Made by a program: the position numbers and the translations under genes. Shown here in pieces: positions 5,065 to 34,378 of a DNA stretch of 39,685 nt. The notes under the pieces are model-generated. The model made no database searches and was not told where the DNA came from. It saw nothing but the letters and a program-made list of their open reading frames with translations. Each line of letters starts with the position of its first letter. Position 1 is the first letter of the stretch. This stretch comes from Flavobacteriales bacterium (GTDB lineage: Bacteria; Bacteroidota; Bacteroidia; UBA10329), in assembly GCA_041302955.1 (NCBI GenBank), contig JBFYQB010000072.1, forward strand, positions 1 to 39,685. Direction: 5' to 3'.

Positions 5065-5112
5065 AAAATTCAGACGCGTTGAATCGAGTCTCTACACTTG
5101 AATTCCTTTCCC

Positions 5113-5355: not shown

Positions 5356-5358
5356 GGC

Positions 5359-6135
5359 ATGGGTTGGTTGGACGCGCTCATCCTCGCCATTGTGGAGGGG
5401 ATCACGGAGTTTTTGCCCGTTTCCTCCACGGGCCACATGATCATCGCCTCGGCTCTCTTGGGCATCAACGAAGAGGCATTCGTCAAGATATTTGAGGTCA
5501 ACATCCAGTTCGGGGCCATCCTGTCGGTGGTGGTGCTCTATTGGAAACGCTTCTTCCAGTCGTTGGATTTCTACTATAAGCTCGGTGTGGCGTTCATTCC
5601 CGCTGCCGTATTGGGTTTCCTGCTGAACGACTTCATCGACACGATGCTCGGAAGCGTAACTGTGGTGGCCGTTTCGCTGCTCGTAGGTGGCATCTTCCTG
5701 CTCTTTGTGGACAGGATATTCAACAAGGTCGAGAATCACGAGATCACGTACAAGAACGGCTTCATCATCGGGTGTTTCCAGTGTTTGGCTATGATCCCAG
5801 GTGTTTCGCGCTCTGCGGCCAGCATCATCGGTGGCATGGCGTTGAAATACGACCGCAAGACCGCTGCCGAATTCTCGTTCTTCCTTGCGGTGCCTACCAT
5901 GTTCGCTGCGGCATCCTACAAATTACTCAAGGGCTACAAGGACATTTCCATGGATGATGTCGGCATCCTTGTGTTCGGCAACGTGGTGGCCTTCTTTGTG
6001 GCATTGGCGGCCATCAAGTTCTTCATCGGTTTTCTCACCAAGTACGGCTTCAAGGTCTTCGGATGGTATCGCATCGTTCTGGGCACCGTTCTGCTGGTGA
6101 TGCTGGCGCTGGGCTACGATTTACGTATCGAGTAG
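5359..6135 (+). CDS. uppP: Undecaprenyl-diphosphate phosphatase (BacA/UppP)
   Basis: 258 aa. The [17 protein letters not shown] signature and a polytopic profile. Confidence 0.93.
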
Positions 6136-6217
6136 GGATATTCAACACTCCAAGTCCCGAAAAGCTTTCGAAACGCTAATCTGCCGATAACCTGACCGCC
6201 TAAAATTCCCTCCTGCC

Positions 6218-6976
6218 ATGTCCCTCGTCCCTTCTCCCTTCCACTTTAAAGAGGGCGAGACCCTGCTGTTCGACAAGCCTCTAGGCTGGACATCCTTTCA
6301 GATGGTGAACCGTGTGCGGGGCATGATCCGCAGGAACATCAGCGAGCGCAACATCAAAGTGGGCCATGCGGGTACGCTCGACCCTTTGGCAACGGGCCTA
6401 TTGGTGCTGTGTACCGGCAAATCCACCCGCACCATCGAGACCATTCAGGCCGCTGAGAAGCAATATACCGGAACCATCTTCCTTGGTGCCACACGGCCCA
6501 GCTACGACATGGAAACGCCCGTGGATGCCACCTTTCCCACGGCCAACATCACCGAGGCGGCCATCACTGAGGCGGCCAAGACCTTTGAAGGCGCCATAGA
6601 CCAGATTCCGCCCATTTTCTCGGCCAAGATGGTGGAGGGCGAACGCAGCTACGACCTTGCCCGCAAAGGCGAGGCCAAGGAGTTGAAGGCCAACCGCATC
6701 ACTATCACCGCATTCCTCATCACCGGGGTGCGCACCGTTGATGGCGGGTTGGAGGCCGATTTTGATGTCACCTGTTCCAAAGGCACCTACATCCGCTCGT
6801 TGGCCCACGACCTTGGGCAGAAACTGGGCTGTGGCGGCTATCTGCAAAGTCTGCGCAGAACCCGCATCGGCAAGCACAAGGTGGAGGATGCGCTCACAGC
6901 CGAGCAGTTTCACTTCATTCTATTTGGCGAAGGTCCGAACAGGGAATTTGACGGAAGAATAAGCGGGAGGGATTGA
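6218..6976 (+). CDS. truB: tRNA pseudouridine(55) synthase
   Basis: 252 aa. The catalytic motif GHAGTLDPLATGLLVLCTG. Confidence 0.93.
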   Translation: MSLVPSPFHFKEGETLLFDKPLGWTSFQMVNRVRGMIRRNISERNIKVGHAGTLDPLATGLLVLCTGKSTRTIETIQAAEKQYTGTIFLGATRPSYDMETPVDATFPTANITEAAITEAAKTFEGAIDQIPPIFSAKMVEGERSYDLARKGEAKELKANRITITAFLITGVRTVDGGLEADFDVTCSKGTYIRSLAHDLGQKLGCGGYLQSLRRTRIGKHKVEDALTAEQFHFILFGEGPNREFDGRISGRD

Positions 6977-6984
6977 CCCTTCTA

Positions 6985-8316
6985 TCAGCGCACGAACTTC
7001 TGTGACTGGAACTCATTGCCAGCGCGCAATCGGGCAAGATAGACCCCAGTCGGCAGCTCCGTGAAGTCGAAGGTCTCATTAACCTGAGCGACCCTTCCAT
7101 ACGCTTTATCCAACAGCAGTTTCCCTTGAAGGTCATAGATAGAAAGGGCAACATCCGTCACACGGTCGGAAGTGTAGCTGAAACGGGATTGTCCATCGAG
7201 CATGGATCCATTCATGCTCCAATTGATGTTGGCCGATTCCAACGTGTTATGCACATCCGTGACCATCGAAGCCATGACCGGATAGGTAACAGTGGTGTCA
7301 AAACAGCCATTGGATGCGGTAAGTGTCACCTCATAATTATTGGGTATTGCATAGGTGTGGGTCGGATTAACCTCTGTGCTGAAAGTGCCATCTCCGAAAT
7401 CCCAAATGAAATCATCGGCCCTTTGTGACATGTTGTAGAAATTGAAAGTCATCCCGTCTATCTGTGGGTCGGACACAAACTCGACCGATTGGAACCACGA
7501 GTCGGCACAGAAGCTTTGTGAGCGAATGATGACACCCGAATCGTAGATACCATCGCCTGCATCGGCAATGACCACTTTCAGGTGATAGGTTTCTCCTGCA
7601 AGCACTGGGTATTCGAGATAAATGGGCGTGGTGTACCCATCATATTGCAGAGTGGTTCCAGCGGTGTTGTCCACGTAGTATTCGGAGTTCATTCCCGCAT
7701 TCACATTGTCGATAGCTATAGGCGTGCTTGTGCCAGGAATCCATGCCACATTCAGTGGTCCGTTGGTGGAAGGGCCTTCTACAAAGAATCCGAAAGCATC
7801 ATTGTAGCCCGAGTTGACGAATTCAAGATACTCCTCTGACCCGAAGACGAAATCGGCCACAAAAATGGTATCGCCAGAAGGAATGAAATCGAACTCCACG
7901 ATACAAGCGTCATAAGTCGATGCACCAGCGAAAACATCCAACAGGGTGTCGCCAGTCAGGTCATTTGAAATTCCTGCGCTTTCACTGTTGTTCGGTCCGA
8001 GAGCAACCTGGGCATCGCCAGTTGTGAGAATCACACCATAAGCAAGCCCTATTGACATGGACGGGTCGATGAACAGCCCGGCAGCAGCAGGCACTCCTGT
8101 GTACTGGATATTGGTCACTTCCACACATCCGCCCAACATGAAATTGCTGATGATGGAATCTATCTGCTCGGCAGTGGTCATAGATATCACCTGAGGCCCA
8201 TCACCGCCTCTGTTCGCAGAAGATGCGGGATTGTTCCACCCCACACGTTGAGGCGAAGTAGTTTGGGCGAAAAGAAGCGTTGGAAACAGAAGGATAAGGA
8301 AGGAAAGATGTTTCAT
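6985..8316 (-). CDS. Secreted choice-of-anchor-L domain protein with a PKD domain and a T9SS type-A C-terminal domain
   Basis: Signal peptide MKHLSFLILLFPTLLFAQ starts at the internal ATG at 8316. FGSEEYLEFVNSGYNDAFGFFV...YDGYT...KVVIADAGDGIYDSGV is choice-of-anchor-L-like. WDFGDGTFSTEVNPTHTY is a PKD motif. The C-terminus LSIYDLQGKLL...GVYLARLRAGNEFQSQKFVR is a sorting tail. Confidence 0.85.
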   Translation of the reverse strand: MKHLSFLILLFPTLLFAQTTSPQRVGWNNPASSANRGGDGPQVISMTTAEQIDSIISNFMLGGCVEVTNIQYTGVPAAAGLFIDPSMSIGLAYGVILTTGDAQVALGPNNSESAGISNDLTGDTLLDVFAGASTYDACIVEFDFIPSGDTIFVADFVFGSEEYLEFVNSGYNDAFGFFVEGPSTNGPLNVAWIPGTSTPIAIDNVNAGMNSEYYVDNTAGTTLQYDGYTTPIYLEYPVLAGETYHLKVVIADAGDGIYDSGVIIRSQSFCADSWFQSVEFVSDPQIDGMTFNFYNMSQRADDFIWDFGDGTFSTEVNPTHTYAIPNNYEVTLTASNGCFDTTVTYPVMASMVTDVHNTLESANINWSMNGSMLDGQSRFSYTSDRVTDVALSIYDLQGKLLLDKAYGRVAQVNETFDFTELPTGVYLARLRAGNEFQSQKFVR

Positions 8317-20694: not shown

Positions 20695-23600
20695 TCATCG
20701 AACAATTGTTATTGGTCCAGTGAAAGGCTGCTCGAAATTGTCAGAACGGATCACATAATAGTATGTGCCAACCGGAAGTTCGTTGCCATCATAACGTCCG
20801 TCCCATGGTATTGGATAACCTGGAGCAGATTGCCATAGCATTTGACCCCACCGATTGTAGATCTCCACGATGGCATCCTCAAATAACTCTATGTTATCAA
20901 TGATCCAAGTATCGTTGATACCATCTCCGTTTGGTGAAATTCCATCAGGGAATCTGATGCCTGGTACCACTTCAACAATTACAGAATCCACATTCGTGCA
21001 ACCATTCTCATCTGTTACTGTTACGTAGTATGTGGTTGATTCTATTGGAGTCGCTTGTGGGTTGGTCACGTTCGGATCATTCAAGGTCTCTATCGGTGCC
21101 CACGTGTAGGTCCACCCAGTTACCACACCATTAGCATTCAAGCCAATGGTTCCACCAGTTGGAATAGTCACGTCATTTCCTGCGTCAACTGTTGGAATGT
21201 TGTACATGGTCACTGTAACCGAATCGGCATCTACGCAGCCGCCTATATCCACAGTCAAGATGTATGTAGTAGTGACAATCGGATTCGCTATCGGATTGGC
21301 GGAATTGGGATTGCTCAAGGTTTCTGATGGACTCCATTGGTAGGAACCGCCACCCGCACCATTGAGTGGAATTGAATCTCCGACACAGAGGTTAATATCT
21401 GTTCCAGCATCTGCGTCAATATTCACCAGTGTTCCAATGCTGTATATCGCTACCAACTCACATCCAGTGGCATCTGTTATCGTCACTGTGTACGCACCAA
21501 AGAGCACGTTATTTAGGTCTTCAGTATTCGCGGAGCTCGGACTCCACTCAAAAGAATATGCTCCCACACCACCAGCAACTGTCAGATTTATCGATCCGTT
21601 TGCTACATTACTGCAGGTGGATGCAGATGTAGTGGCATTGGACACAAGAGCTGGAGGTCCAGAAACGGTAACACTGTTTTGAGTTACACACCCATTTGCA
21701 TCAGTTATGGTTACGGTGTAAGTGCCAACACACAGACCTGTAGCTTGCGACCCCGTTTGGTTTGAAGGGTCATTCCACAAATATGAATAGGGAGCCGTTC
21801 CGCCAACGGGTGTTGTTGTTGCCGTGCCATCACAAGCACCACCACAGGCTTCGTCCACCGCGGTGGTGGCGGTCAACAATAAAGCGGGTTGAGTTATGAT
21901 TACTGTAGCCTGTGTTGTACAGGCAGGGGATTGAGAATCTACAACAGTAACCACATAGTTGCCTGCGCAGAGACCAGTAGCTGTTTGTGAGCTTTGATTG
22001 AAAGAATCACTCCATGAGTACGAAAATGGGCCAACGCCACCAGTTGTGAACACAGTGGCCGTACCGTCACAATCTCCATTGCAAGTGACAGAAGTGAATA
22101 CGGGCACCCCAGCGGCTAGTGCGCCATTATCATTAATGCTCACAGTAGCAGTTGCCGTACACCCGATATCGTCTGTAATTATAACTGTATGATCTCCAAC
22201 ACATAAACCAGTGGCCGTGGTACCTGTTTGTCCATTCGACCATTGATAAGTGAAAGGTGGTGTTCCTCCAACACCTTGCACAGTCGCCTGCCCTGTGCAA
22301 CTTCCTGAGCACAACACTTGAACCGTAGAGGTAATGTTCGCATTCAGAATAGGTGGCTCAGTCAGTTGGAAATCAACCGTATCAGAACATAGACTGGCAT
22401 CAATAACTATTACAGAATATTGACCTGCGCAAAGGCCTGTGATAGTATTTCCGACACCAAAATTAGACCAGATGACGGTATAGGGCGCAGTACCACCAGA
22501 AATGTTCACTGTTGCCTCTCCATCGCATACTCCACCGCAGCTGGCATTTATCGTGGTAACGGTCGCAACCAGTACAGGTGGTTCTGTTATTGTCACAGAA
22601 GCAGTAGTGGCACATCCATTGGCATCGGTAATCGTTACGGTATAAGTGCCAGCACATAAATTAATTGCCGAAGCTGAGGTCTGTCCATTCGGATCATCCC
22701 ATAGGAACGAATAAGGGGCGGTACCACCTTGGGTCAACACTGTAGCTACACCATCGCAAAGACCCCCGCAAGAGATGTTGATGCCTTGTCCGATAGACAC
22801 AAGTGGAAGTGGTTCAGTAACGATTGCTGCACTGGCGTTTGTACAGCCATTCGCATCAGTGACAATAACGTTATAGATTCCTGGGCACAAGGCCGTAACG
22901 GTGTCATTTTGAGTAAGTGCTGGGTCTGTCCATTGATAATCATAGGGTGCAGTTCCACCTGTAGCAGATACATAGACCTCGCCATCGCAATCCCCATTGC
23001 AGCTTACACCTTGAGCAGATGTGGTTACAATAATGTCAGATGGCTCCGCAATGGTCACTTGAGTCGAGTCCTCACAACCAGCAATATCTGTTACAACAAC
23101 TGTATAGACGCCCGCACAGAGTGCTACAACAGTATCATTTGCAGTCAGCAAAGGGTCATTCCAAGTAAATGAGAATGTACCAGTACCTCCAGAAGCTGAA
23201 GCATATGCTTCGCCATCACACACCCCAAAACAGGAAGCATCCAGACTTGAAGTATTTATAACAATAGCATTCGGTTCATCTATAGTTATTGCAGAAGTTA
23301 CTGAACAGCCATTCGCATCACTAATTGTGGCAGTGTAGACTCCTGCGCAAAGTCCAGTTGCGGTGGGCAGGTTACCACCAGAAGGAGACCAACTAACGGT
23401 GTAAGGAAGAGTTCCCCCAGAGGCAATGATGGTAACTTCTCCATCGCATGCTCCAAAGCAACTAGCATCTGTTATCAAGGGCAGGCTGACAGAGATTACA
23501 GTTGGCTCGCTTATAGTGACCTGACCAACAGTAATACATCCATTTGCATCCGTAACAGTGACACTGTATGAACCTGCACAGAGCCCTGTAGCATTGCTAG

Positions 23601-26600
23601 TCGTTTGAGTAGCAGGGTCATTCCAGTTAAAGGAGTAAGGTGCTGTTCCACCAGTTGCGGTTACAGTAGCTGTTCCATCACATGTTCCATTGCAAGAAAC
23701 ATCGGTGCTAATAGTACTTAGCAGTGGGCCGTTGACATTATTTACTGGTACCACTACCGAAGCATTACATCCGCTACCGTCCGTTATAGTTACAGCATAA
23801 GTTCCTGACGCCAATCCCGTTGCTGAGTTTGTAGACGAGACATTAGGATTCCAAGAATAGGTGTAAGGACCTCCGTCACCTCCAGATGGCGTTAGGGTTA
23901 TACCGCCATTTGCACTTCCACAAGTGGCAGGGATGGATGAATACGAAGGAATGATCTGAGCAGGTTCAGAGATAGTTACAGCTTGTGTGAATATACATCC
24001 CAGACTATCTATTATCTGTAGATTGTAGACACCAGCACAAACTCCTGATATAGAACTTGAGGTCTGGCCTCCTGGCACCCATAGGTAAGTGTAAGGAGCG
24101 GTACCACCAACAATGTTGTTAACGGAAGCCGAGCCATCACAAACTCCGAAGCAAGAAGCATCAGTAGTTGTAACTGTCGCGCTTGTTGGAGCCCCATCAT
24201 TATTTACTGGAATGATGAAATTCTGTATGCAACCAAATTGATCGATAACATCAACATTGTATACCCCTGGGCACAGTCCTGTTACAGTTGAGGTTGTTTG
24301 GCCATCGCCCCACAGGTATGTATATGGCTGAACACCACCCGTGGGTGCTACGCTTGCTTGTCCATTACATTGTCCACAGGTCGCATTTGTAACAGTAGAA
24401 TTCGCAGTGATCTCCGTTGGCTGGAAGATGTTCACAGAAGCATTTGCAATACAGCCATTCGCATCCGTAACAATAACATCATAAGGTCCAGGACAAAGAT
24501 TTGATGCTGTGATAGTGGATTGCCCATTAGGGTCATTCCATTGGTAGGAGTATGGAAATGTACCACCTGTTGTGAAGGCCGTTGACGTTCCATCGCAAAT
24601 GCCAAAACAGTCTGGATCGTTGGCAGTTGTGCTCGCAGACAGTACAGCAGGTTGAGCAATGATAACAGTAGAAATAGATATACATCCGTTTGCATCCGTC
24701 ACAGTAACGGATGTTGCTCCTGGACATAATCCATTAGCAACCGTTCCAGTTTGGTTGGCAGGGTCATTCCATTGATACGTGTAGGGTGCGGTTCCACCAG
24801 AGGCAGTTACCGTAGCCGTACCGTCACAAGCAGCATTACAAGAAGCATTCACCTGAGATGTGATTACTGAGGTCAATCCATTCGGTCCTGTAATGGAAAC
24901 CGAGGCCGTTTGGACACAGCCATTTGCATCAACCACCGAAACAATATAACTGCTAGCGCAAAGTCCCGTTGCAGTCTGGGTTGTTTGCGATGCTGGATCA
25001 CTCCATGTTATAGAGTACGGACCAACACCTCCGGTGACATTTGCAGTAGCCTCACCTACACAGACTCCGTCACATTGAAGGTTTATGATATTACTGAAAG
25101 CAATGTTGATTGGTGCGGGTTCATTTATGGTGATACTTACCACAAAATCACAATTGTTCGCATCGGTCACCGTTGCACTATAAGTTCCTGCGCACAGCCC
25201 AGTGGCAATTGCGGTGGTCTGTGCGGCTGGATCGTCCCATAAGTAATTGAATGGAGCGGTTCCGCCTTGAACGGTCACTGAGGCAGTGCCATCACAAATG
25301 CCATTGCAGGTAACATCTGTACCCACTACAGAGGCAGTAAGCCCGACAGGATTATTCACTGTTCCATTAACAACATCAGTACATCCATTTGCATCTGTTA
25401 CAACTACAGAATATGTGCCCGCACATAAGTTTCCAGCGGTCGCAGTGATCTGAGTGGCAGGGTCATTCCACTGATAAGTAAAGGGAATGGTTCCACCTGA
25501 AGGAATCACTGTAATAGCGCCATCACAATTGCCAGCACACGTTCCGTTGTCGATAATAAGCAGCGAAAGACCGATTTGATCTGGAGCCTCAATCGTGGTC
25601 TGACCCACTGAAATACAACCATCCGCGCCTGTAACGGTAACGGTGTAAAGCCCTTCGCAGAGACCACTTGCTGTTGCAGTGGTTTGCGTGCCAGCATCAT
25701 CCCATACAAAGCTGAATGGGGCCGTACCACCTGTGGTGGTTACAGTTGCACTGCCATTGCAGGCAGCGTCACAAAGCGGATCTGTACCTACTACAAATAG
25801 CGTTGCAGATGGAAAATCATTCAACAATACCGTCACAGGTTCTTCGCAACCTGTAGCATCCGTGACTGTGATGTTATAGACACCAGCACACAAACCTGAT
25901 GCATTTGATACGTTGCCTACAACAGCAGGTGACCAATCGTAAGTGAATGGGGCAACTCCAGATATGGGAGTGAGCGCAATAACACCATCACATAGACCAC
26001 AGCTCGAGTTAGTAACGGTTTGGCCAATTTGAATTTGTGCCGGGGACCCAATAGTAACAGGTTCTGTATAAATACATCCGTCCGCATCCTGAATCTGGAC
26101 GAAGTAAGTTCCAGCACAAAGACCAGACGCGCTGTTCGTGTTTTGTCCACCTGGTACCCACTGATAGGTATACGGAGTAGAGCCACCGACAGGGTTTAGC
26201 GTAGCAGAGCCATCACAAATGCCAAAACAGCTGGTATTTGTGATCACAGGATTACCAGAGGTTGGACCTGTAGTATTGTCAACAGGAACAAAAAATGTAT
26301 TGGTACAGCCGTTGGCATCGGTCACTTCAACCTGATATATTCCAGCACATATGTTGTTCAAAGTTGAGTTGGTTGCGCCTGTATTCCATAGGTATGAATA
26401 GGGTGCCTGACCATTAGATGGTGTAACAGTCACACTGCCATCGCACACTCCGCAAGAAGCATCGGTTACGCTAGAGGAAATTTGTATTGGAACTGGTTCG
26501 TTAACTGTGGCCAGTGAGTCGTTGCTGCCTGATCCACCGAAATTCAGACTCCAATCGAATATGAAACCATCATCTATGCTGAGATTATCCGTAACGGTGA

Positions 26601-29600
26601 CGGTCCAGTTACCATTCAGAGGACAACCTATAAAGCCATTGAAGGACTGGAAAGGAGTGTAGGTGCCCGGGGTCATTGAATTACTAGGAGCATTACCCGC
26701 TGTGACCCAGTTTCCGTTCGTGTTCTCTTGCAGAATTGTTCCAAAGGATGCAGTTGCAGAGAAACAATATTCGGCACCAGTTCCAGGAGTTCCATTTGCG
26801 CCCGCATCATTTGCCGCGCCAAGATAGGTGCCTGCGCCTCCAGGGTATTGCTTCAAAACCACGGTCTGGCCGTTTGGACATGTAAGACTCATCTCCAGAT
26901 CACCAAGATAGGAGTGCTCCATATTGATACAGATATCTTGAAGGTCTGTGGCAGATGTGATGGTGCTATTGGAAGGGAATCCGGTAATGGCAATCGAAGT
27001 GTTGTAAGAAACGCCATTACCATCAGGTAAAGCCAAAGTTCCACCCGCAAACGATCCCCCTAATGTTATCTGACTTGATGTGCAACCATTCGCATCGGTT
27101 ACTACTACAGAGTAATCTCCAACAGGCAGGTTATTGATGTCCTCAGTGGTTTGGCCGCCTGGGAACCACTGATATATGTACGGTGCTGTGCCGCCTGTTA
27201 CGGTCATATCAATAGAACCGTCAGAGGCACCATTACAACTCACATCGGTAACATCCAATGTGATAATGATAGGACTCGGTTCGGTAATGGAAACTGTTTG
27301 CTGTACAGAGCAACCTATATTATCCGTGGCGGTGAATGTATAAGTTCCAGCGCAGAGACTCGAAAGACCAAGGCCTGTGCTTCCAGAGGGCTGCCATAAG
27401 TATGTGAATGGAGCATTACTTCCCGTTACCGTAGCTGTAGCAGTTCCATCACAATCCCCATTGCAACTCACATTGGTGCTTGCCATTGATACTTGAATCT
27501 GATTGTCATTTATAGTGAATTGAGCTATATCAGAACAACCATTGGCATCTGTAACCAATACTTGATAAGAACCTCCACACAGGTTGCTAATGCTAGCACC
27601 GGTTCCTATGTTCGGTGTCCACGTATAAGTGTACGGAGCTGTACCTCCCGTCACGTTTACACCTGCCGTTCCGTTACATGACCCATTGCAAGTTGCATTT
27701 GTGGAAGTAGGATTAAGCAGGAAAGTATTTGGCTGAGTAATGGTAATTGAGAGATTATTGCTACATCCTTGATTGTCTGTAACCGTTACTGTATAGAGTC
27801 CTGGACCAAGGTTGCTAAGATCTTGCGTTACCTCCCCACCGGGAAGCCATGAATAGGTATAAGGTGCGACACCTCCAGATACCGAAAGATTGATAGAACC
27901 ATCATTTGCGCCACTGCAGGAAACATTAACATGAGTTTCTGTAAGTACAATTTGTGGGGACTGATTGATTGTGAATTGACCAGTAATTGAGCATCCGCTG
28001 GCATCGGTAGCAACACCAATGTAAGTGCCTGCCGCAACATTGATAAGATCTTCCGAATTTATGTTTCCAGGATTCCACACCACAGAATATGGTGCTGTTC
28101 CACCAAACAGGGTAACATCTATCGAGCCATTAGTCGCACCGAAACAGCCTACGGGAGTAATGTTTAACTGACCTCCGAGATTTGGTGGTGTTGTCAACGT
28201 GAATGACTGCGTGACCTGACAACCTGTACCTTGATCGGTGATAATTACATTATAGGTTCCCCCAGAAAGGTTGCTCAAATTCTGAGTGCTCGCTCCATTT
28301 GACCAAGTATAAGTGAACGGCCCCACACCACCAGAAACGACAAGACTTATAGAACCGTTGGACGTTCCTGTGCATGTTGGATTGACGGCAGTACCACTTA
28401 CTGATGGCGACCCTTGGTTATTTAGGTTCAGTGTGGTATCAAATGAACATCCGTTAAGATCGGTCACTGTAACCGTATAAAGACCAGCTCCCAAACCACT
28501 GATGTCTTCCGTAATAGCACCGTTGGACCAAACAAATGAATAAGGGGCACTACCACCTGTAACGCTCACATTGATTGCGCCATTGATGAGCCCACAGGAA
28601 GGTGAAGTTGGAGCACTTGTCACCACCAGTTCGTTACCTGCTTGAACTGGGAATGATCCGAATGCTACACATCCAGTTATATTGTCAGTTACTGTGACAA
28701 CGTATGTGCCATCAGCAAGTCCACTTATATCTTCGGTTGCAGGGCCATTTGACCAACTGTAGGTGAAGTCACCGCTTCCATCCGTAACAGACACATCAAT
28801 CGAGCCATTGTTAGAGACACAATTTGTTCCATCGGTCACTACGCCATCCACAGTGTGACCAGGAAAATTATTTACGATTACAGTAACCTGCTCTGAACAA
28901 CCAAGAACGTTATCTACAACAGTAACATCATAAATCCCAGCCGCCAAACCACTTAGGTTCTGAGTTGATTGTCCACTAGGGAGCCAAGTGTATCCATAGT
29001 TTCCAGAACCGCCCAACACCGTAAGATTGATGCCACCGTCAGACGCACCACACGCTGCGCTGCTGCTGATGTAGGAGACCAAAAGCGTTGAACCATCAAT
29101 TATAGTAACTGGCAAACTTGCCGTACAACCATTATCATCGGTCACAGTGACCACATAAAATCCTGCACTCAAACCATTTAAATCCTGCGTAACCGCGCCA
29201 TTGGACCAGCTGTAACTATAAGGTGCGGTGCCTCCAGAAACGGAGATGTTTATTGCACCATTTGCGAGACCATCACAACTAACATTCGTGTGTGTCTCAG
29301 TGATTGTAATGGGAGATGGTTGCGACACCGTAACTGCTGGAGGAGTGAAGGTGCAACCTATGTCATCTGTTACGGTAAGGGTGTAGGAACCGGCATCAAG
29401 GCCCGCTATATCTTCAGTTATCTGACCATCAGGAGACCACAGGAAAGTATAAGGCGGTGTTCCGCCAAATGTTCCCGAGGATGATATCGCACCATCTGTA
29501 CCACCATTGCAGCTTACATCCGTAGGTGTCAATGTAACAGACCAATCAGGCTCTTGGTTAATGGTATATGGTTGGCTTTGGGAACATCCATTATCATCAG

Positions 29601-30141
29601 TCACGGTCATGCTATATGTTCCGGAATTGAGTCCATTTACCGATGTGCCAGTATTGGGAAATGGGAGCCATGAGTACGTGTACGGTGCCACGCCACCCGT
29701 TACCACTACAGAAGCCTGCCCGTCATTGCTATCGGGGCAGGTTTCATCAATGGTGGAAAGTTGAATATCGAATGGAGCGGGGTCATTGATGGTGACAAAA
29801 TCCAAAACACCGGGGCAGCTACCACCAACGCCATTTTGACCAACAACGATTATTTGATAATCTGAAATGCCAGCACCCAAACCTGTGAATTGGTATGTTG
29901 TGCTTGCTTGAGGCCCAGAAGATTGAAAGAAAGGGCCGTTAAAAATCTGAAATGTGTAGGTCGGAAAACCACCCGAAATAGTTATACTTATGGTTCCATC
30001 ATTGGCGCCACTGCATGTGACGTCAGTAGCTACAATGGATTGAATAACGACAGGACATTGAGCTTTGGAGTTTTGATAGCTGAAAAAGCTGAAAGCAGCT
30101 ATCAGAAACAGCAGTGGGGTAATGCGTAGAGTTCGCGTCAT
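20695..30141 (-). CDS. Giant (3148 aa) SprB-repeat cell-surface protein with an embedded P-domain-like module and a T9SS type-B (gliding-motility-associated) C-terminal sorting domain
   Basis: Signal peptide MTRTLRITPLLFLIAAFSFFSYQNSKAQ. There are 35 repeats of the form C..(DG)...V.GG.(A/P)PY.Y.W....(L)(C)AG.Y.V.V.D.NGC. The C-terminus is FPDGISPNGDGINDTWII...VEIYNRWGQMLWQS...WDGRYDGNELPVGTYYYVI (TIGR04131-like). Confidence 0.9.
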   Translation of the reverse strand: MTRTLRITPLLFLIAAFSFFSYQNSKAQCPVVIQSIVATDVTCSGANDGTISITISGGFPTYTFQIFNGPFFQSSGPQASTTYQFTGLGAGISDYQIIVVGQNGVGGSCPGVLDFVTINDPAPFDIQLSTIDETCPDSNDGQASVVVTGGVAPYTYSWLPFPNTGTSVNGLNSGTYSMTVTDDNGCSQSQPYTINQEPDWSVTLTPTDVSCNGGTDGAISSSGTFGGTPPYTFLWSPDGQITEDIAGLDAGSYTLTVTDDIGCTFTPPAVTVSQPSPITITETHTNVSCDGLANGAINISVSGGTAPYSYSWSNGAVTQDLNGLSAGFYVVTVTDDNGCTASLPVTIIDGSTLLVSYISSSAACGASDGGINLTVLGGSGNYGYTWLPSGQSTQNLSGLAAGIYDVTVVDNVLGCSEQVTVIVNNFPGHTVDGVVTDGTNCVSNNGSIDVSVTDGSGDFTYSWSNGPATEDISGLADGTYVVTVTDNITGCVAFGSFPVQAGNELVVTSAPTSPSCGLINGAINVSVTGGSAPYSFVWSNGAITEDISGLGAGLYTVTVTDLNGCSFDTTLNLNNQGSPSVSGTAVNPTCTGTSNGSISLVVSGGVGPFTYTWSNGASTQNLSNLSGGTYNVIITDQGTGCQVTQSFTLTTPPNLGGQLNITPVGCFGATNGSIDVTLFGGTAPYSVVWNPGNINSEDLINVAAGTYIGVATDASGCSITGQFTINQSPQIVLTETHVNVSCSGANDGSINLSVSGGVAPYTYSWLPGGEVTQDLSNLGPGLYTVTVTDNQGCSNNLSITITQPNTFLLNPTSTNATCNGSCNGTAGVNVTGGTAPYTYTWTPNIGTGASISNLCGGSYQVLVTDANGCSDIAQFTINDNQIQVSMASTNVSCNGDCDGTATATVTGSNAPFTYLWQPSGSTGLGLSSLCAGTYTFTATDNIGCSVQQTVSITEPSPIIITLDVTDVSCNGASDGSIDMTVTGGTAPYIYQWFPGGQTTEDINNLPVGDYSVVVTDANGCTSSQITLGGSFAGGTLALPDGNGVSYNTSIAITGFPSNSTITSATDLQDICINMEHSYLGDLEMSLTCPNGQTVVLKQYPGGAGTYLGAANDAGANGTPGTGAEYCFSATASFGTILQENTNGNWVTAGNAPSNSMTPGTYTPFQSFNGFIGCPLNGNWTVTVTDNLSIDDGFIFDWSLNFGGSGSNDSLATVNEPVPIQISSSVTDASCGVCDGSVTVTPSNGQAPYSYLWNTGATNSTLNNICAGIYQVEVTDANGCTNTFFVPVDNTTGPTSGNPVITNTSCFGICDGSATLNPVGGSTPYTYQWVPGGQNTNSASGLCAGTYFVQIQDADGCIYTEPVTIGSPAQIQIGQTVTNSSCGLCDGVIALTPISGVAPFTYDWSPAVVGNVSNASGLCAGVYNITVTDATGCEEPVTVLLNDFPSATLFVVGTDPLCDAACNGSATVTTTGGTAPFSFVWDDAGTQTTATASGLCEGLYTVTVTGADGCISVGQTTIEAPDQIGLSLLIIDNGTCAGNCDGAITVIPSGGTIPFTYQWNDPATQITATAGNLCAGTYSVVVTDANGCTDVVNGTVNNPVGLTASVVGTDVTCNGICDGTASVTVQGGTAPFNYLWDDPAAQTTAIATGLCAGTYSATVTDANNCDFVVSITINEPAPINIAFSNIINLQCDGVCVGEATANVTGGVGPYSITWSDPASQTTQTATGLCASSYIVSVVDANGCVQTASVSITGPNGLTSVITSQVNASCNAACDGTATVTASGGTAPYTYQWNDPANQTGTVANGLCPGATSVTVTDANGCISISTVIIAQPAVLSASTTANDPDCFGICDGTSTAFTTGGTFPYSYQWNDPNGQSTITASNLCPGPYDVIVTDANGCIANASVNIFQPTEITANSTVTNATCGQCNGQASVAPTGGVQPYTYLWGDGQTTSTVTGLCPGVYNVDVIDQFGCIQNFIIPVNNDGAPTSATVTTTDASCFGVCDGSASVNNIVGGTAPYTYLWVPGGQTSSSISGVCAGVYNLQIIDSLGCIFTQAVTISEPAQIIPSYSSIPATCGSANGGITLTPSGGDGGPYTYSWNPNVSSTNSATGLASGTYAVTITDGSGCNASVVVPVNNVNGPLLSTISTDVSCNGTCDGTATVTATGGTAPYSFNWNDPATQTTSNATGLCAGSYSVTVTDANGCITVGQVTISEPTVISVSLPLITDASCFGACDGEVTIIASGGTLPYTVSWSPSGGNLPTATGLCAGVYTATISDANGCSVTSAITIDEPNAIVINTSSLDASCFGVCDGEAYASASGGTGTFSFTWNDPLLTANDTVVALCAGVYTVVVTDIAGCEDSTQVTIAEPSDIIVTTSAQGVSCNGDCDGEVYVSATGGTAPYDYQWTDPALTQNDTVTALCPGIYNVIVTDANGCTNASAAIVTEPLPLVSIGQGINISCGGLCDGVATVLTQGGTAPYSFLWDDPNGQTSASAINLCAGTYTVTITDANGCATTASVTITEPPVLVATVTTINASCGGVCDGEATVNISGGTAPYTVIWSNFGVGNTITGLCAGQYSVIVIDASLCSDTVDFQLTEPPILNANITSTVQVLCSGSCTGQATVQGVGGTPPFTYQWSNGQTGTTATGLCVGDHTVIITDDIGCTATATVSINDNGALAAGVPVFTSVTCNGDCDGTATVFTTGGVGPFSYSWSDSFNQSSQTATGLCAGNYVVTVVDSQSPACTTQATVIITQPALLLTATTAVDEACGGACDGTATTTPVGGTAPYSYLWNDPSNQTGSQATGLCVGTYTVTITDANGCVTQNSVTVSGPPALVSNATTSASTCSNVANGSINLTVAGGVGAYSFEWSPSSANTEDLNNVLFGAYTVTITDATGCELVAIYSIGTLVNIDADAGTDINLCVGDSIPLNGAGGGSYQWSPSETLSNPNSANPIANPIVTTTYILTVDIGGCVDADSVTVTMYNIPTVDAGNDVTIPTGGTIGLNANGVVTGWTYTWAPIETLNDPNVTNPQATPIESTTYYVTVTDENGCTNVDSVIVEVVPGIRFPDGISPNGDGINDTWIIDNIELFEDAIVEIYNRWGQMLWQSAPGYPIPWDGRYDGNELPVGTYYYVIRSDNFEQPFTGPITIVR
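21440..30057 (-). repeat. Protein-level array of 35 SprB-type repeats (~75-80 aa each), interrupted at 26539-27060
   Basis: Counted by eye from GG-x-x-P-(Y/F)-x-(Y/F)-x-W signatures: 13 repeats N-terminal and 22 C-terminal to the interrupting module. The repeats have diverged at the DNA level. Confidence 0.85.
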
Positions 30142-30382: not shown

Positions 30383-31198
30383 TCAAAAGACAAACTTGAT
30401 ACGGGAAAGGTCCTCTCTAGTTTCAAAATGGAGTATGTAAACGCCAATAGACAAGTTGTCATGTACGATATGAAAATGATTTGGGCCTTCAAGAACGTTG
30501 ACCGTGCCTTCAATCAAGAGACTACCGAAGGCGCTGAGCAGTTTGAATTTGGCTACGGAGGCATTTGAAGAGACATACTCAACATGAATTTCATTCGAAA
30601 CGCGGTCTACCTGCAATACGAGGCCATTGACTTCACTGTTCTCACCAATGCCATTTGGTTCCTCTATACGAAGAGAATAGGTCTTGTCGTAGAGCGTGTG
30701 CAAGCCTTGAGAGAGTTCAAATTCGGTTGGAATTCCAGGTATTGGAGTCCCAGATAGCGCAAGAATTTGTGCCATATCCAAAATCCCCCGAGTGTACGAT
30801 GCTATTTCTACTTGAAAATCTCCAGATTCTGAAGGGGCATCGCCAAACACGATTGATCCAGTGGAATTGCTATTGAATCTACAGGTTGATGGAGTACAAA
30901 CTTTTGTCATCCCCAATGGCAAGCCAGAAACCGAAAACTCTATGCTGGTTATTGTCAATGGAAGCATCATTCCATTTATCTCAGTGATGAAGAGTGCCAA
31001 AGGTGGAAATTGTTGAATCAACATTGCTGACACATCAGCACCACTTACAGTTGTATTTGAGGGAATTGTTGCCAAAACGTAGTTGGAATACTCTTGTCCG
31101 AGTTCGCCATCTGGCAAAGCAGGTACATCAGGGTTGAAAATCTGTGATCTTAATAGTAAAGGGCAAAATATCAGAAGGAGCAGACAGACTTTAGACAT
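30383..31198 (-). CDS. Secreted protein with an Ig-like (He_PIG-like) segment and a T9SS type-A C-terminal domain
   Basis: Signal peptide MSKVCLLLLIFCPLLLRSQ. FSVSGLPLGMT...GSIVFGDAPSESGDFQVEI resembles putative-Ig repeats. The C-terminus FKLLSAFGSLLIEGTVNVLEGPNHFHIVHDNLSIGVYILHFETREDLSRIKFVF is a sorting tail. Confidence 0.7.
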   Translation of the reverse strand: MSKVCLLLLIFCPLLLRSQIFNPDVPALPDGELGQEYSNYVLATIPSNTTVSGADVSAMLIQQFPPLALFITEINGMMLPLTITSIEFSVSGLPLGMTKVCTPSTCRFNSNSTGSIVFGDAPSESGDFQVEIASYTRGILDMAQILALSGTPIPGIPTEFELSQGLHTLYDKTYSLRIEEPNGIGENSEVNGLVLQVDRVSNEIHVEYVSSNASVAKFKLLSAFGSLLIEGTVNVLEGPNHFHIVHDNLSIGVYILHFETREDLSRIKFVF

Positions 31199-31328: not shown

Positions 31329-33125
31329 ATGAAGAAGCTGCATTCCATTTTTGAAGGATTTTTCTCTATTGATACTCGTACGCTTGCCTTTGTACGAGTT
31401 CTCACAGGACTTGTAATCATCATGGATCTCATTTCGAGATCGATGGACCTGACTTCCATGTACACTGATCAAGGTGTACTTCCACGTACTATGCTTCTCA
31501 GTGCTGCGAATAACTGGACCTTTTCTGTACATGCAATTGGAGGATCATACATGTTTGTGACATTCATGTTTCTGCTTGCTGGGGTGTTTGCGCTCATGCT
31601 CAGTTTGGGGTATCGCACAAGATTGATGACCATTCTCTCTTGGCTTATGGTGATGTCCATTCAAAATCGCAATCCATTGGTATGTTATGGTGGTGATTCT
31701 GTGCTCAGGATGTTGCTTTTCTGGGGCATGTTCGTGCCTTGGGGGGCTAAATATTCCATTGATAGCCTGCGTTATGGATTCAATAGTCTGTCTGACCATC
31801 TTCCGAAGAAGATATTTACCATGGGCACAATCGGGATGACACTTCAGGTGCTTTACATCTATCTGTTCACAGCCCTTTTCAAGAATGGACCTGAATGGCA
31901 TGCAGATGGTACGGCCGTATATTTTGCCATTGCTATAGACGAGTTAGCTTCCCGGTTCAACTTTATTCTCAGAGAAATCCCTGTAGACTTTCTGAAAGGC
32001 ATGACTTGGACAGTACTTGCTTGGGAATGGATAGGACCTTTTGTTGTTGCATGGCCGCATTGGAAAGTACGCGTTGTAGGACTTATCGGTTTTTTCCTCC
32101 TTCAGTTGAGCTTTTTCACCTTTATGGTCTTAGGGCTATTCCCAGTGTTCAGCACATTGGCCATATTAATATTCGTGCCTTCGGAGGTATGGGACAAGTT
32201 GGAGGGATACTTTATTAAGTCTCGTCAGCGAAACCTAAAAATATACTACGACCCAAGCTGTGGTTTTTGCCAACATGTGGTGATTGCATTGAACCGTTTC
32301 CTTTTGTTCGATTCTGCTCAGTTGATTCCGGCCAACATGGATTCTTCAATTCATGATCAGCTTAGAAAGAACAATTCATGGGTGGTAAAGGATGAAATTG
32401 GACATACCTATTTGAAAGGCCAAGCATTGATCGCTGTTTTCAACCATTCACCACTATTTTGGCCAATAGGTAAGTTACTTGGCCTGCTAAAAAACGTTCT
32501 TGATAAGATATACATTGCTATAGCTAACAATCGGCCTGAATGGCCTGCATTTCAACATTTTCCTAATGGTCTGATCTCGCGCTATTCCACTACTCAGTCA
32601 ATGGCAGTCATGGTTCTAGCACTTTGGTGTTTATTGTACATCACGTTGTTCAACTTTCACAAGTATGACGAGACCGCTTTACCTGTGCCAAAATCTTTGA
32701 TCTGGGTATCTGGCATATTCAAGGTCGATCAGAACTGGGCCATGTTTGCCCCAGCACCATATCGGGCAGATGGTTGGTTTGTGATTCCAGCTGAGCTTGC
32801 CAATGGAGATACCGTTGACATCTTTAAAAATGGAGCTCCTGTAAATTGGAATAGACCAGAACGAGTGGCCGCTACATATAGGAACACACGTTGGAGCAAA
32901 TATTTGAGGACTATTCGGCAGCCCAAATACAAGACCGCACTGAAGCATTATGTGCGTTGGCTATGGCGTGATTGGGACAAGAATCATCCATCAGATCAGC
33001 GACTTCAGAAATTCCAAATGTTCTTTGTGATGGAGACCAACTTGGCGGACTGGGAGACTGCGCCACCAAACAAAATCGCGCTATGGTCGCAGGATTGTAG
33101 AAAAAATTCGGAGTTGATAAGGTGA
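31329..33125 (+). CDS. Fusion protein: HTTM (vitamin-K gamma-carboxylase/SdpB-like) membrane domain + DCC (DUF393) CxxC thiol-disulfide oxidoreductase + C-terminal TM/soluble domain (possibly SdpA/DUF5819-like)
   Basis: aa 1-~297: FSIDTRTLAFVRVLTGLVIIMDL, YRTRLMTILSWLMVMSIQNRNP and GGDSVLRMLLFWGMFVPWG (HTTM pattern). aa ~303-405: KIYYDPSCGFCQHVV (DCC signature, Cys codons at 32259-32270). aa ~410-598: one TM helix, then DQNWAMFAPAPYRADGWFVIP. Confidence 0.85.
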   Translation: MKKLHSIFEGFFSIDTRTLAFVRVLTGLVIIMDLISRSMDLTSMYTDQGVLPRTMLLSAANNWTFSVHAIGGSYMFVTFMFLLAGVFALMLSLGYRTRLMTILSWLMVMSIQNRNPLVCYGGDSVLRMLLFWGMFVPWGAKYSIDSLRYGFNSLSDHLPKKIFTMGTIGMTLQVLYIYLFTALFKNGPEWHADGTAVYFAIAIDELASRFNFILREIPVDFLKGMTWTVLAWEWIGPFVVAWPHWKVRVVGLIGFFLLQLSFFTFMVLGLFPVFSTLAILIFVPSEVWDKLEGYFIKSRQRNLKIYYDPSCGFCQHVVIALNRFLLFDSAQLIPANMDSSIHDQLRKNNSWVVKDEIGHTYLKGQALIAVFNHSPLFWPIGKLLGLLKNVLDKIYIAIANNRPEWPAFQHFPNGLISRYSTTQSMAVMVLALWCLLYITLFNFHKYDETALPVPKSLIWVSGIFKVDQNWAMFAPAPYRADGWFVIPAELANGDTVDIFKNGAPVNWNRPERVAATYRNTRWSKYLRTIRQPKYKTALKHYVRWLWRDWDKNHPSDQRLQKFQMFFVMETNLADWETAPPNKIALWSQDCRKNSELIR

Positions 33126-33179
33126 AAAGGAAATTCGTATAAATTCGTGGCCTCCTTCAAACCTATTCAATAAACTGAC

Positions 33180-34046
33180 ATGAAAAAAAATTACTTGGTT
33201 GGCGGCATCACCGCAATTGCATTCTTTTCTGTAGTAGGCTATGACTATTACACTGGCAACGTTTCTCTTTTTGCGAAGAAAGCCGTTGAAAATGGCCCAT
33301 CTGGAATTGCTGACGTTTCTGGAGATCAGGATGTGAACCGTGGAGGTGTGGCTCCCTTGGGCGGTATTGCTGACCTTGGTGCAAACAGCGACCTTCTTGC
33401 AAATTCGGACGTTATTGGCGGATTGGCGGACATCTCTGCTACTGCCGACATTTCTGCTACTGCTGACATTTCTGCTGTGGCTGACATTTCTGCTACTGCT
33501 GATATTTCTGCTGTTGCCGACATCTCAGCTACCGCTGATATTTCTGCTACTGCTGATATTTCTGCTACCTCTGACCTTCTTGCCAACTCTGACCTTCTTG
33601 GTGGTCTAGCTGATCTTGGTGCAAATAGCGACCTTCTTGCCAATTCTGACCTTCTTGGTGGATTGGCTGATATTTCTGCTACTGCTGACATCTCTGCTAC
33701 TGCCGATATTTCTGCAACGGCCGATATCTCTGCTACTGCTGATGTATCAAGCAACGGTACGGGTATTGAGGAAGATTTCGCTGCTGGTAAGGTAGCCGTA
33801 TATAACTTCCCAAACCCTGCGACCGAAATCACGAACTTCCGTTTTCAGTTGAACGAAGGTTCTTTGGTACGTATCGTTCTATATGGTGCGAATGGTCAGA
33901 TGGTGGCAATGCCGCTTAACAAACAATACGGCCCAGGTGAATACGTTCATTCTTTCGATGTGAGCAGTCTTACTCCAGGTACATATGTATACTCTTACCA
34001 GTTGGGCAATCGCATGCCAGTTATGCGTAAGCTGATCATTAAATAA
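33180..34046 (+). CDS. T9SS-targeted hexapeptide-repeat protein (ADISAT / SDLLAN / GGLAD units)
   Basis: 288 aa. N-terminal hydrophobic signal or anchor (MKKNYLVGGITAIAFFSVVG), ~21 consecutive 6-7 aa units each ending in Asp, and a C-terminal type-A sorting tail (VAVYNFPNPATEITNFRFQL...GTYVYSYQLGNRMPVMRKLIIK). It starts 54 nt after the HTTM-fusion stop with no terminator between. Confidence 0.8.
   Translation: MKKNYLVGGITAIAFFSVVGYDYYTGNVSLFAKKAVENGPSGIADVSGDQDVNRGGVAPLGGIADLGANSDLLANSDVIGGLADISATADISATADISAVADISATADISAVADISATADISATADISATSDLLANSDLLGGLADLGANSDLLANSDLLGGLADISATADISATADISATADISATADVSSNGTGIEEDFAAGKVAVYNFPNPATEITNFRFQLNEGSLVRIVLYGANGQMVAMPLNKQYGPGEYVHSFDVSSLTPGTYVYSYQLGNRMPVMRKLIIK
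33357..33743 (+). repeat. In-frame 18-bp tandem repeat array with higher-order duplication
   Basis: 8 units of att/atc-tct-gct-act-gct-gac at 33432-33575 and 4 units at 33672-33743. Each block is preceded by a ~60-nt duplicated module (33372-33431 and 33612-33671) encoding LGANSDLLANSD(V/L)(I/L)GGLAD. Confidence 0.95.
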
Positions 34047-34070
34047 GAGGTATATTCATTCTTGATATGG

Positions 34071-34104
34071 GAGGCTGACCTTTTAAGGTCAGCCTCTTTT
34101 TTTT
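34071..34104 (+). terminator. Rho-independent terminator of the HTTM-fusion/repeat-protein operon
   Basis: gaggctgacc (34071-34080), loop ttttaa, ggtcagcctc (34087-34096), then T8. It lies 25 nt after the stop at 34046. Confidence 0.8.
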
Positions 34105-34340
34105 GCTCGAGTGATTTTGGATTTTTTGAGTGATTGACTCTTGCCATGGGCTGTAGCCGCCCTGTCAGGCCTTATATAGCATTTACTCCTTATTGAGTCA
34201 AGATCAGTGAATTTGTTGGTAAGCATATCCAACATGACGGTAAAAGCACGATGCACGGGTGAATTTATGCTAAACACCGAGGCCAATAGGGAGCAGGTCT
34301 TAGTATGTATTCTAAGAGAGTAGTGAGGATTTTGACACAA

Positions 34341-34378
34341 AAAGAAAGGGCGGACATATGTCCGCCCTTTCTTTTTTT
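34341..34378. terminator. Bidirectional hairpin terminator
   Basis: aaagaaagggcggaca-tatg-tccgccctttcttttttt. A perfect long palindrome flanked by an A-rich and a T-rich run, 15 nt downstream of the minus-strand 50-aa ORF. Confidence 0.7.

Follow-up and report, generated by a model that had tools for sequence, protein, structure and literature searches.

A conserved pairing of a GGCX-like HTTM-DCC membrane protein with an Asp-periodic T9SS cargo protein in Bacteroidota

GGCX, the gamma-glutamyl carboxylase that depends on vitamin K, and its bacterial homologues belong to the HTTM/GGCX superfamily. In GGCX, Lys218 is the general base, Trp223 stacks on this base, and Phe299 stacks on CO2 (PMC12647623). 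His160 of GGCX binds the substrate carboxylate and CO2 and couples CO2 to the deprotonation of Glu, and the enzyme recognises a hydrophobic-Glu dipeptide for processive carboxylation. MloH, a bacterial vitamin K-dependent carboxylase orthologue from the Streptomyces malonomycin pathway, carboxylates an aspartyl residue. To our knowledge, MloH is the only bacterial HTTM/GGCX homologue with a demonstrated chemical role, which it performs on a small molecule, and we know of no bacterial protein substrate of a GGCX-like enzyme. In Melghirimyces thermohalophilus, a split pair made up of an HTTM-DCC1 protein and a transmembrane (TM)-DUF5819 protein is predicted to form a complex that resembles whole GGCX: menaquinol lies near the conserved Lys189, Trp195, and Phe273, the DUF5819 TM helix replaces a GGCX helix, and the DUF5819 domain caps the site (bioRxiv 10.64898/2026.08.19.745780). 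The preprint proposes neither a substrate nor a link to the type IX secretion system (T9SS) (bioRxiv 10.64898/2026.08.19.745780). Here, we describe a single-chain relative of these systems, encoded directly upstream of a T9SS cargo protein on a 39,685-nucleotide stretch of DNA from a Flavobacteriales bacterium (contig JBFYQB010000072.1 of assembly GCA_041302955.1, positions 1 to 39,685 of the forward strand; hereafter, the window). A preliminary description of the locus knew of no established function for bacterial HTTM-DCC proteins; MloH and the 2026 preprint on the HTTM-DCC1 and DUF5819 pair are precedents that it did not take into account.

The gene of the three-module membrane enzyme (31329..33125, + strand) encodes 598 residues and has 182 homologues, with full-length relatives in many phyla. 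The partner gene (33180..34046, +) starts 54 nt downstream and encodes 288 residues. In all 16 Bacteroidota loci examined (the window, L001-L010, L029, L086, L090, L094, and L095), which represent three diverged clades, the enzyme gene is followed by a partner of this kind. The partner gene invariably comes next on that strand, after a gap of 30-70 nt, and its product consists of an N-terminal hydrophobic segment, Asp-periodic repeats, and a T9SS C-terminal sorting domain (CTD). The pairing includes two clades in which the enzyme is only 37-38% identical to that of the window and the repeat units, DLSDIS and DLGDLxDVN, are unrelated to the ADISAT and DLLANS found in other partners. In L004, both flanks differ and the pair is kept. 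Thus, the adjacency of orthologous fusions to a secreted, T9SS-sorted repeat protein, which the preliminary description had put forward, holds down to an enzyme identity of 37%. Searches from the partner side, comprising a metagenome scan that yielded two loci and a protein search that yielded four clusters, led without exception to loci that have the enzyme gene upstream (L089, identical with the L002 contig, L090, L094, and L095). As these searches returned few homologues, the reciprocal cases are few, but they are unanimous. The fusion architecture itself is widespread; what is new is its pairing with the Asp-periodic partner. As far as the searched literature shows, this coupling of the enzyme to an Asp-periodic T9SS cargo is undescribed.

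Some taxonomic labels among these loci call for caution. L029 carries the label of a metagenome-assembled genome (MAG) of Luminiphilus (Gammaproteobacteria), but its sequence and that of the Flavobacteriales contig L010 are nearly identical, and it encodes a T9SS cargo; the contig is probably mis-binned. The 'Chryseobacterium' labels on the MAG contigs L007-L009 also look doubtful.

Judging from sequence and from the described systems, the reading that we favour, at a rough probability of 45%, is that the enzyme is a menaquinone-dependent, GGCX-like modifier that acts on the Asp repeats of its partner in the periplasm. The partner has features that would suit such a role. Its N-terminus, MKKNYLVGGxTAxAFFxVVGYDYYTGNxSxFAKK (residues 1-34; 33180..33281, +), contains a hydrophobic export segment, either a signal or an anchor, visible in the sequence. 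In eight orthologues, 24 of these first 34 columns are invariant and the repeat region is highly variable, so we consider the N-terminus a candidate docking motif. The middle region of 168 residues contains 25 Asp, each nearly always followed by Ile, Leu, or Val, and no Cys. It is encoded in part by an 18-nt tandem array of 17.1 copies (33429..33742, +; Tandem Repeats Finder), translated as hexads such as ADISAT and DLLANS. Residues 210-287 (33807..34040, +) form a type A T9SS sorting domain, scoring 35.3 bits on PF18962 (gathering score 27) and 31.5 bits on TIGR04183 (cutoff 23); for the L086 and L010 partners, the tail scores are 33.3 and 28.9 bits. Among 12 partners compared, none contains Cys, Lys and Arg are almost absent, and the 19-107 Asp residues are spaced by 6 or 3 and nearly always followed by Ile, Leu, Val, or Met. 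The arrays thereby resemble the substrate logic of GGCX, in which many acidic residues lie beside hydrophobic ones. Three features set the partner apart from GGCX substrates: its putative target residue is Asp instead of Glu, its hydrophobic residues come after the acid, and it has no GGCX-type propeptide.

The period of 6 residues (18 nt) is real, as judged by Tandem Repeats Finder. However, the label of a hexapeptide-repeat protein, which had been attached to the partner earlier, did not hold: there was no Hexapep match, and a left-handed beta-helix was rejected, the sole related match being to LpxD NF002060 at E 0.017. An LED repeat was likewise rejected (LED_rpt, 16 bits vs 59). Two ORFs in other frames of the array, 33326-33832 (-, 168 residues) and 33340-33609 (+, 89 residues), are by-products of the 18-nt repeat and not genes; such by-product ORFs recur in orthologous loci.

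The first module of the enzyme, residues 14-285 (31368..32183, +), is an HTTM/GGCX-like TM catalytic core. Comparison of the family profile with human GGCX using hhalign gave a probability of 94.1% and an E value of 1.2e-7 over 244 columns, pairing residues 14-285 with GGCX 59-313; the GGCX sequence was checked against PDB chain 13ib_A. The AlphaFold2 (AF2) model of the whole 598-residue enzyme had a mean predicted local distance difference test (pLDDT) score of 89.8 and a predicted TM-score (pTM) of 0.89. When this model was used in Foldseek, the significant PDB matches were 15 GGCX entries only (E 2.6e-7 to 7.5e-5, TM-score ~0.42). Sequence searches of the PDB with the family profile, the profile of the C-terminal module, and P0054 gave no relevant match. 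The HTTM assignment made earlier from the letters was thus upheld, although not by every route. The enzyme alone did not reach Pfam HTTM (PF05090) at E<=1, but 19 of 39 full-length homologues did (best E 2.9e-13), and over positions 14-284 the family consensus scored 52.2 bits (gathering score 27.7). As the query alone gives no match, its HTTM identity is based on the homologues, the profile comparison, and the predicted fold, from which we conclude that the protein belongs to the HTTM/GGCX superfamily, a known superfamily.

Residue conservation was read from the 39 full-length homologues, and GGCX equivalences were taken from the hhalign columns. Lys185 (codon 31881..31883, +) corresponds to the general base Lys218 of GGCX. 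Trp190 lies five residues downstream of it, as Trp223 does after Lys218. Four equivalents are invariant in the enzyme family, namely K185=K218, W190=W223, R248=R276, and F271=F299, and two others, E233=D263 and N115=N159, are each at least 90% conserved. Accordingly, the enzyme shares with GGCX the same membrane-core fold, a homologous sequence, and the equivalents of Lys218, Trp223, Asp263 (Glu in the enzyme), Phe299, and Asn159. Lys189, Trp195, and Phe273 of the split Melghirimyces pair match K185, W190, and F271, and the two systems contain the same three modules, on two polypeptides there and on one here. A difference from GGCX concerns His160, which pairs with Pro116; the family consensus at this point is RNP, and the alignment is less reliable in this loop. 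The replacement suggests that the substrate/CO2 half-site is not fully conserved. MloH, compared by description only, also has a bacterial HTTM core, fused to a region structurally corresponding to DUF5819, but it acts on a small intermediate of a polyketide synthase-nonribosomal peptide synthetase pathway rather than on a ribosomal protein, and no DCC domain is reported for it.

Two further likenesses of the core bear on its function. The SdpB model TIGR04033 was weakly matched by 28 of the 39 homologues (best E 6.1e-10); the query scored 21.1 bits against a curated cutoff of 178.4, and the SdpB likeness is at the superfamily level only. In 6 of 39 homologues, the core resembled LMF1. These matches raise the alternative that the enzyme is an SdpAB- or LMF1-like maturation factor that does not carboxylate its partner but aids its processing, folding, release from the membrane, or handover. 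An example would be a secondary cleavage after the conserved N-terminal segment, much as SdpA and SdpB are needed to produce SDP from SdpC. We consider this unlikely, if the most credible of the alternatives. The sdpABC and yitPOM operons of Bacillus subtilis, encoding SdpA/SdpB and YitP/YitO, do provide a precedent for an HTTM gene and a secreted client in one operon; moreover, the conservation of the partner's N-terminus is unusual for a signal peptide, and the lack of a conserved His160 fits a protein that does not carboxylate. Nevertheless, SdpB scores were far below the cutoff, SdpA was never matched, and the partner differs from SdpC in having neither Cys nor a hydrophobic toxin segment. 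SdpB itself has no DCC domain. A maturation role would also leave unexplained the invariant or nearly invariant quinone/base constellation of K185, W190, E233, and F271, and why only the Asp-hydrophobic periodicity persists while the repeat units change.

The second module, residues 305-406 (32241..32546, +), is a DCC1-like thioredoxin-fold domain, as had been proposed at the outset. It matched PF04134 at 29.0 bits (gathering score 27.8) over profile positions 1-111 of 113, as did 33 of the 39 homologues, and the family consensus scored 47.3 bits. Its CGFC (Cys313-Cys316; 32265..32276, +) was read directly and in the alignment columns; it lies in the context YYDPSCGFC, where D310-P-S-C313-G-F-C316 fits the DxxCxxC motif. 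The CxxC is kept by 33 of the 39 homologues; the DCC domain is missing from four relatives, and two have a degenerate motif. The domain sits in place of the Lys/Arg-rich cytoplasmic loop between TM8 and TM9 of GGCX. Based on this alignment and on the positive-inside pattern, the domain is predicted to be cytoplasmic. VKOR and DsbB-type oxidoreductases offer an analogy, in that they too functionally couple a CxxC redox module to a membrane quinone, as proposed here for an analogue of the vitamin K cycle. There is no homology, however: the CxxC of VKOR lies in a four-helix membrane bundle that faces the lumen or periplasm, whereas the DCC1-like domain is a soluble thioredoxin fold, probably on the cytoplasmic side. 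A different analogy drawn in the preliminary description, to the disulfide maturation of SdpC, failed. All 12 partners examined are free of Cys, which rules out an SdpC-type disulfide role of the DCC domain on the cargo.

The CxxC also suggests a general quinone-linked thiol-redox enzyme, in which an HTTM quinone scaffold (cf. DoxX, DoxD, and MauE) couples the DCC CxxC to the quinone pool and the repeat gene does not encode a substrate. The conservation of this motif, the weak DoxX and TQO-DoxD matches in a few homologues, and the spread of the family over many phyla with mostly unrelated neighbourhoods are in keeping with this idea, as is a pair of Cys conserved in the C-terminal module of most family members. 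The pairing with the repeat protein argues against it: it is found in every Bacteroidota locus, survives rearranged flanks, and persists at 37% enzyme identity, and all seven adjacent repeat-protein neighbours elsewhere are on the same strand as the enzyme gene. Further, both the core and the C-terminal module persist in the relatives without the DCC domain, which makes thiol chemistry accessory, and the clade of the window lacks the first Cys of the C-terminal pair. We therefore rate a thiol-redox function as distinctly unlikely, below a maturation role.

The third part of the enzyme begins with a TM helix, residues 425-447 (32601..32669, +; helix 425-446 in the AF2 model), which is the positional equivalent of TM9 of GGCX. 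It is the sole stretch that hhalign paired with GGCX 361-372, and this pairing was not significant. The C-terminal module that follows (residues 448-598; 32670..33122, +) is predicted to be periplasmic. It contains the QxWxMFAP motif (residues 468-477; 32730..32759, +) within DQNWAMFAPAPYRADGWF at residues 467-484, and five of its residues, Q468, W470, F473, P477, and W522, are invariant among the 39 homologues. An exhaustive profile search of representatives yielded 5219 clusters at 50% identity, and the module thus constitutes a large family of its own. It occurs mostly at the C-terminus of proteins of 450-530 residues (HTTM plus module) or ~600 residues (with DCC), and some members have a length of only 160-260 residues. 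Since it is normally fused to HTTM, it is not usually a separate gene, and at least 577 species have the three-module form; the earlier statement that these modules are normally separate genes is therefore incorrect. GGCX resembles the enzyme family in carrying the core and the extracytoplasmic part on one polypeptide.

Several assignments of this module were rejected or lacked support. The preliminary description had associated it with SdpA or DUF5819. However, TIGR04034 (SdpA) was matched neither by the query at E<=1 nor by the 39 homologues at E<=0.1. Matches to DUF5819 (PF19136) reached 13.8-16.3 bits (E 0.008-0.09) against a gathering score of 27.1. They occurred in a few homologues and the consensus but not in the query, and covered profile positions ~20-55, that is, the QxWxMFAP motif only. 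Membership was thus rejected, in contrast to the module of the split pair, and DUF5819 is kept as a distant or positional analogue. A correspondence to the lumenal clamp of GGCX was not supported (hhalign vs GGCX 357-632, probability 0.4%), and the AF2 model of the isolated module (pLDDT 86.6) had no Foldseek match in the PDB at E<=0.001. Both GGCX and, by prediction, the enzyme have an extracytoplasmic domain after a ninth TM helix, opening with a WxM-containing loop, and the helix-to-WxM spacing resembles that from TM9 to Y395/W399/M401. Unlike in GGCX, this domain has only ~150 residues and no detectable similarity to clamp A, clamp B, or the GGCX CTD. A pair of Cys, conserved in most family members (YLCRxWN and a further C near the end), is consistent with a module that lies in the periplasm. 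The Flavobacteriales clade of the window has Trp in place of the first of them (WLWRDWD) and keeps the last, C590 (window 32970-33110, residues 548-594).

Taken as a modifier of its partner's Asp repeats, the enzyme would be a quinone-using inner-membrane protein operating as follows. An eight-helix core (residues 14-295) would hold the active site at the periplasmic membrane face, with Lys185 as the base on Trp190 together with Glu233, Phe271, and Asn115. The ninth helix and C-terminal module would cap this site from the periplasm, placing the QxWxMF motif at the substrate-quinone loop formed in GGCX by Tyr395, Trp399, and Met401, which is also the predicted site of the DUF5819 partner. The DCC domain, inserted between helices 8 and 9 on the cytoplasmic side, would probably serve the quinone cofactor by supplying or recycling reducing equivalents; one example would be the reduction of menaquinone epoxide or quinone, the task of VKOR in the vitamin K cycle. 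The partner would leave the cytoplasm by Sec, dock through its conserved N-terminal segment, and have its Asp residues modified processively before T9SS transport. The likeliest reaction, in analogy to those of GGCX on Glu and MloH on an aspartyl residue, would be a carboxylation to beta-carboxy-aspartate driven by menaquinol and O2. This is the leading guess because of the aspartyl precedent of MloH, the use by GGCX of an acid-hydrophobic dipeptide, and the conserved Lys/Trp/Phe/acid constellation. The modified partner would then reach the T9SS, to be either displayed or released as a polyanionic surface protein that probably binds Ca2+. Of this scheme, the domain identities, the conserved catalytic residues, and the gene linkage are observed, whereas the topology, the enzyme-substrate relation, the chemistry, and the task of the DCC domain are inferred.

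Outside Bacteroidota, three-module relatives of the enzyme were found in many phyla, in at least 577 species representatives overall. The lineages include Flavobacteriales, many Cyanobacteria, Acidobacteriota, Alpha-, Beta-, Gamma-, and Deltaproteobacteria, Chloroflexota, Nitrospirales, Planctomycetota, lineages of the candidate phyla radiation (CPR), and Actinobacteria. Public annotation names the enzyme 'DCC family thiol-disulfide oxidoreductase YuxK' or 'HTTM domain-containing protein'. The non-Bacteroidota neighbourhoods are mostly unrelated to one another. Nonetheless, secreted proteins with short-period repeats account for 7 of 137 adjacent genes vs 6 of 482 non-adjacent genes (odds ratio 4.3, p=0.012, uncorrected for phylogeny). 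All seven adjacent genes are on the strand of the enzyme gene, and six of the seven products carry a PEP-CTERM or LPXTG signal. In the Cyanobacteria L012, L016, L022, L025, and L078, adjacent same-strand PEP-CTERM proteins have GGDDEV, GGTT, DDGTV, TGTT, and GTTP repeats. The enzyme adjoins a PEP-CTERM protein in the deltaproteobacterial MAG L014, a repeat protein with an LPDTG signal in the actinobacterium L080, and a GSSN-repeat protein without a C-terminal sorting signal in L056, an Aestuariivirga (Alphaproteobacteria). These neighbours hint at a wider link of the enzyme family to sorted surface proteins.

The composition of these neighbours is relevant to the chemistry. The same enzyme-substrate module might use a menaquinol/O2-generated base to abstract a proton from low-complexity repeats in some other reaction, such as epimerisation or modification of the side chain or backbone, that is common to the Asp-rich, Thr/Gly-rich, and Ser/Ala/Pro-rich spacers of sorted surface proteins. 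Such a reaction would suit the repeat neighbours of Cyanobacteria, Deltaproteobacteria, Actinobacteria, and Alphaproteobacteria, which are often non-acidic yet share short-period repeats and, L056 excepted, carry a C-terminal sorting signal (PEP-CTERM or LPDTG). It would also suit the presence of Pro at the position of His160, the residue that binds the substrate carboxylate and CO2 in GGCX. Conversely, it has no known precedent in the HTTM/GGCX superfamily, and the equivalent of Phe299, which stacks on CO2 in GGCX, is invariant. The non-Bacteroidota statistics are modest in addition to being uncorrected, and PEP-CTERM and LPXTG proteins in general often contain low-complexity spacers. We regard such a reaction as improbable, more so than either alternative discussed above.

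Several points weigh against the favoured reading, that is, a menaquinone-dependent modification of the partner's Asp repeats, and in particular against carboxylation. With Pro116 in the place of His160, the carboxylation half-reaction may be altered or absent, and a GGCX orthologue from Leptospira reportedly epoxidises without carboxylating. The hydrophobic residue follows Asp in the partner but precedes Glu in GGCX substrates. Many non-Bacteroidota homologues have no repeat neighbour, and several of the repeat neighbours that do occur are rich in Thr, Gly, Ser, or Asn without acidic residues (GGTT, TGTT, GTTP, and GSSN), so Asp carboxylation cannot be a family-wide function. Adjacency within one phylum could partly reflect inherited synteny. 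The analogy of the C-terminal module to a propeptide clamp is positional only; in neither fold nor profile does the module significantly resemble the GGCX clamps. The predicted cytoplasmic location of the DCC domain puts it across the membrane from the active site, and in some relatives the domain is missing or its CxxC is degenerate; a VKOR-like role for this domain is speculative.

In its most far-reaching form, the favoured reading would make the partner the first known ribosomally made bacterial protein to be modified by a homologue of the vitamin K-dependent carboxylase. Dozens of periodic Asp residues of a T9SS cargo would become beta-carboxy-aspartate, giving a polyanionic surface protein that binds Ca2+ or minerals, and the HTTM-DCC enzymes of several phyla would be dedicated modifiers of low-complexity spacers in sorted surface proteins (T9SS CTD, PEP-CTERM, and LPXTG). 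We hold this full version to be doubtful, with odds slightly above those of the best-placed alternative weighed above but well short of those of the reading from which it extends.

Some loci of relatives showed other arrangements. In L012 (Coleofasciculaceae cyanobacterium), two tandem three-module paralogues (4108-5925 and 5953-7773) both lie downstream of a (GGDDEV)n PEP-CTERM protein, and the upstream paralogue has a degenerate CxxC (YYDQDSTLSKK). In five loci from Pyrinomonadaceae and Acidobacteriota (L015, L024, L027, L036, and L040), genes for a PqqD-like protein of 82-90 residues and a ~338-residue protein that looks HPr-kinase-related are located immediately downstream of the enzyme gene, on the other strand, a pairing typical of clusters for peptides that are made by the ribosome and modified post-translationally (RiPPs). 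In the Cyanobacteria L019, L021, L026, L041, L044, L047, L051, L057, and L061-L063, the enzyme gene forms a conserved cluster with those of an MBOAT-type (AlgI/DltB-like) acyltransferase and a ~310-residue protein, which suggests a link to the acylation of surface polymers or proteins. L093 (1-5353) encodes, within ~5 kb of one strand, three HTTM paralogues of the two-module, DCC-less type; two are immediate neighbours, and a PGA_cap gene (CapA-like, poly-gamma-glutamate capsule) lies among the three. A DCC-less HTTM subfamily of ~590 residues (P0097, P0108, and P0110; Cytophagales and others; L087 1120-4676 and L092 3374-5911) has different neighbours: an ABC-transporter ATPase gene directly follows and, in L087, a UbiA-family prenyltransferase gene precedes.

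Returning to the window, the short gap and the failure of a scan of its 54 nt to find a terminator-like site make co-transcription of the enzyme and partner genes plausible. An intrinsic-terminator-like hairpin and T-run close the pair (34069..34106, +; hairpin 34069-34098, 13-bp stem, 7 GC pairs). The co-transcription asserted earlier is not thereby established; the gap also contains TAAATTCG (33140..33147, +), 33 nt upstream of the partner ATG. It is part of a TAnnTTCG element that is invariant across eight orthologous intergenic regions, the rest of which have diverged. This element is possibly a Bacteroidetes-type -7 promoter box, for which the consensus is TAnnTTTG; given this resemblance, the partner gene may have a promoter of its own. 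A sigma-70 promoter scan, the model of which is unsuited to Bacteroidota, performed no better than shuffled sequence (11 sites vs 9.0 expected). In other respects, what the preliminary description read directly from the letters, namely the ORFs, the 54-nt gap, the CGFC context, the T9SS tail, and the terminator, was borne out. Approximately 250 nt past the first terminator, at 34348-34363, the window has another GC-rich hairpin, GGGCGGACATATGTCCGCCC; it is symmetric, comes with T-runs on both strands, and may be a bidirectional terminator serving a convergent aldehyde dehydrogenase gene.

On the other side of the enzyme gene, a divergent gene (30383..31198, -) encodes a 271-residue secreted protein that is probably, though less securely than had been supposed, a T9SS cargo. 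The window's protein itself scored 15.1 bits on TIGR04183 over its C-terminal 87 residues, below the cutoff of 23, and it had no Pfam match, but its homologue in L005 scored 24.8 bits, above the cutoff. Homologues of this protein sit near the enzyme-partner pair in three other loci. Beyond it, 20695-30141 (-) encodes a giant protein of 3148 residues composed of repeated Cys-containing modules. Its orthologues in L001 and L005 have SprB repeats and a CHU_C (T9SS type B) tail. The giant gene is syntenic with the enzyme-partner pair in several loci and missing from L004.

Bacterial HTTM/GGCX homologues are very numerous, as the 5219 clusters of the C-terminal module alone illustrate, and the pair described here is a testable candidate enzyme-substrate pair for one of them. 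The candidate substrate is defined and genetically tractable. Because it is small, Cys-free, and T9SS-secreted, it should be easy to purify from the supernatant or the cell surface, and carboxylation would be read out as multiples of +44 Da on Asp. If the carboxylation reading is false, the pair is still a conserved client relationship for an uncharacterised family. If it is true, vitamin K-type carboxylation would extend to bacterial protein maturation, the fusion would provide a self-contained carboxylase-reductase for enzymology and CO2-fixation engineering, and the partners would constitute a new class of post-translationally modified T9SS cargo.

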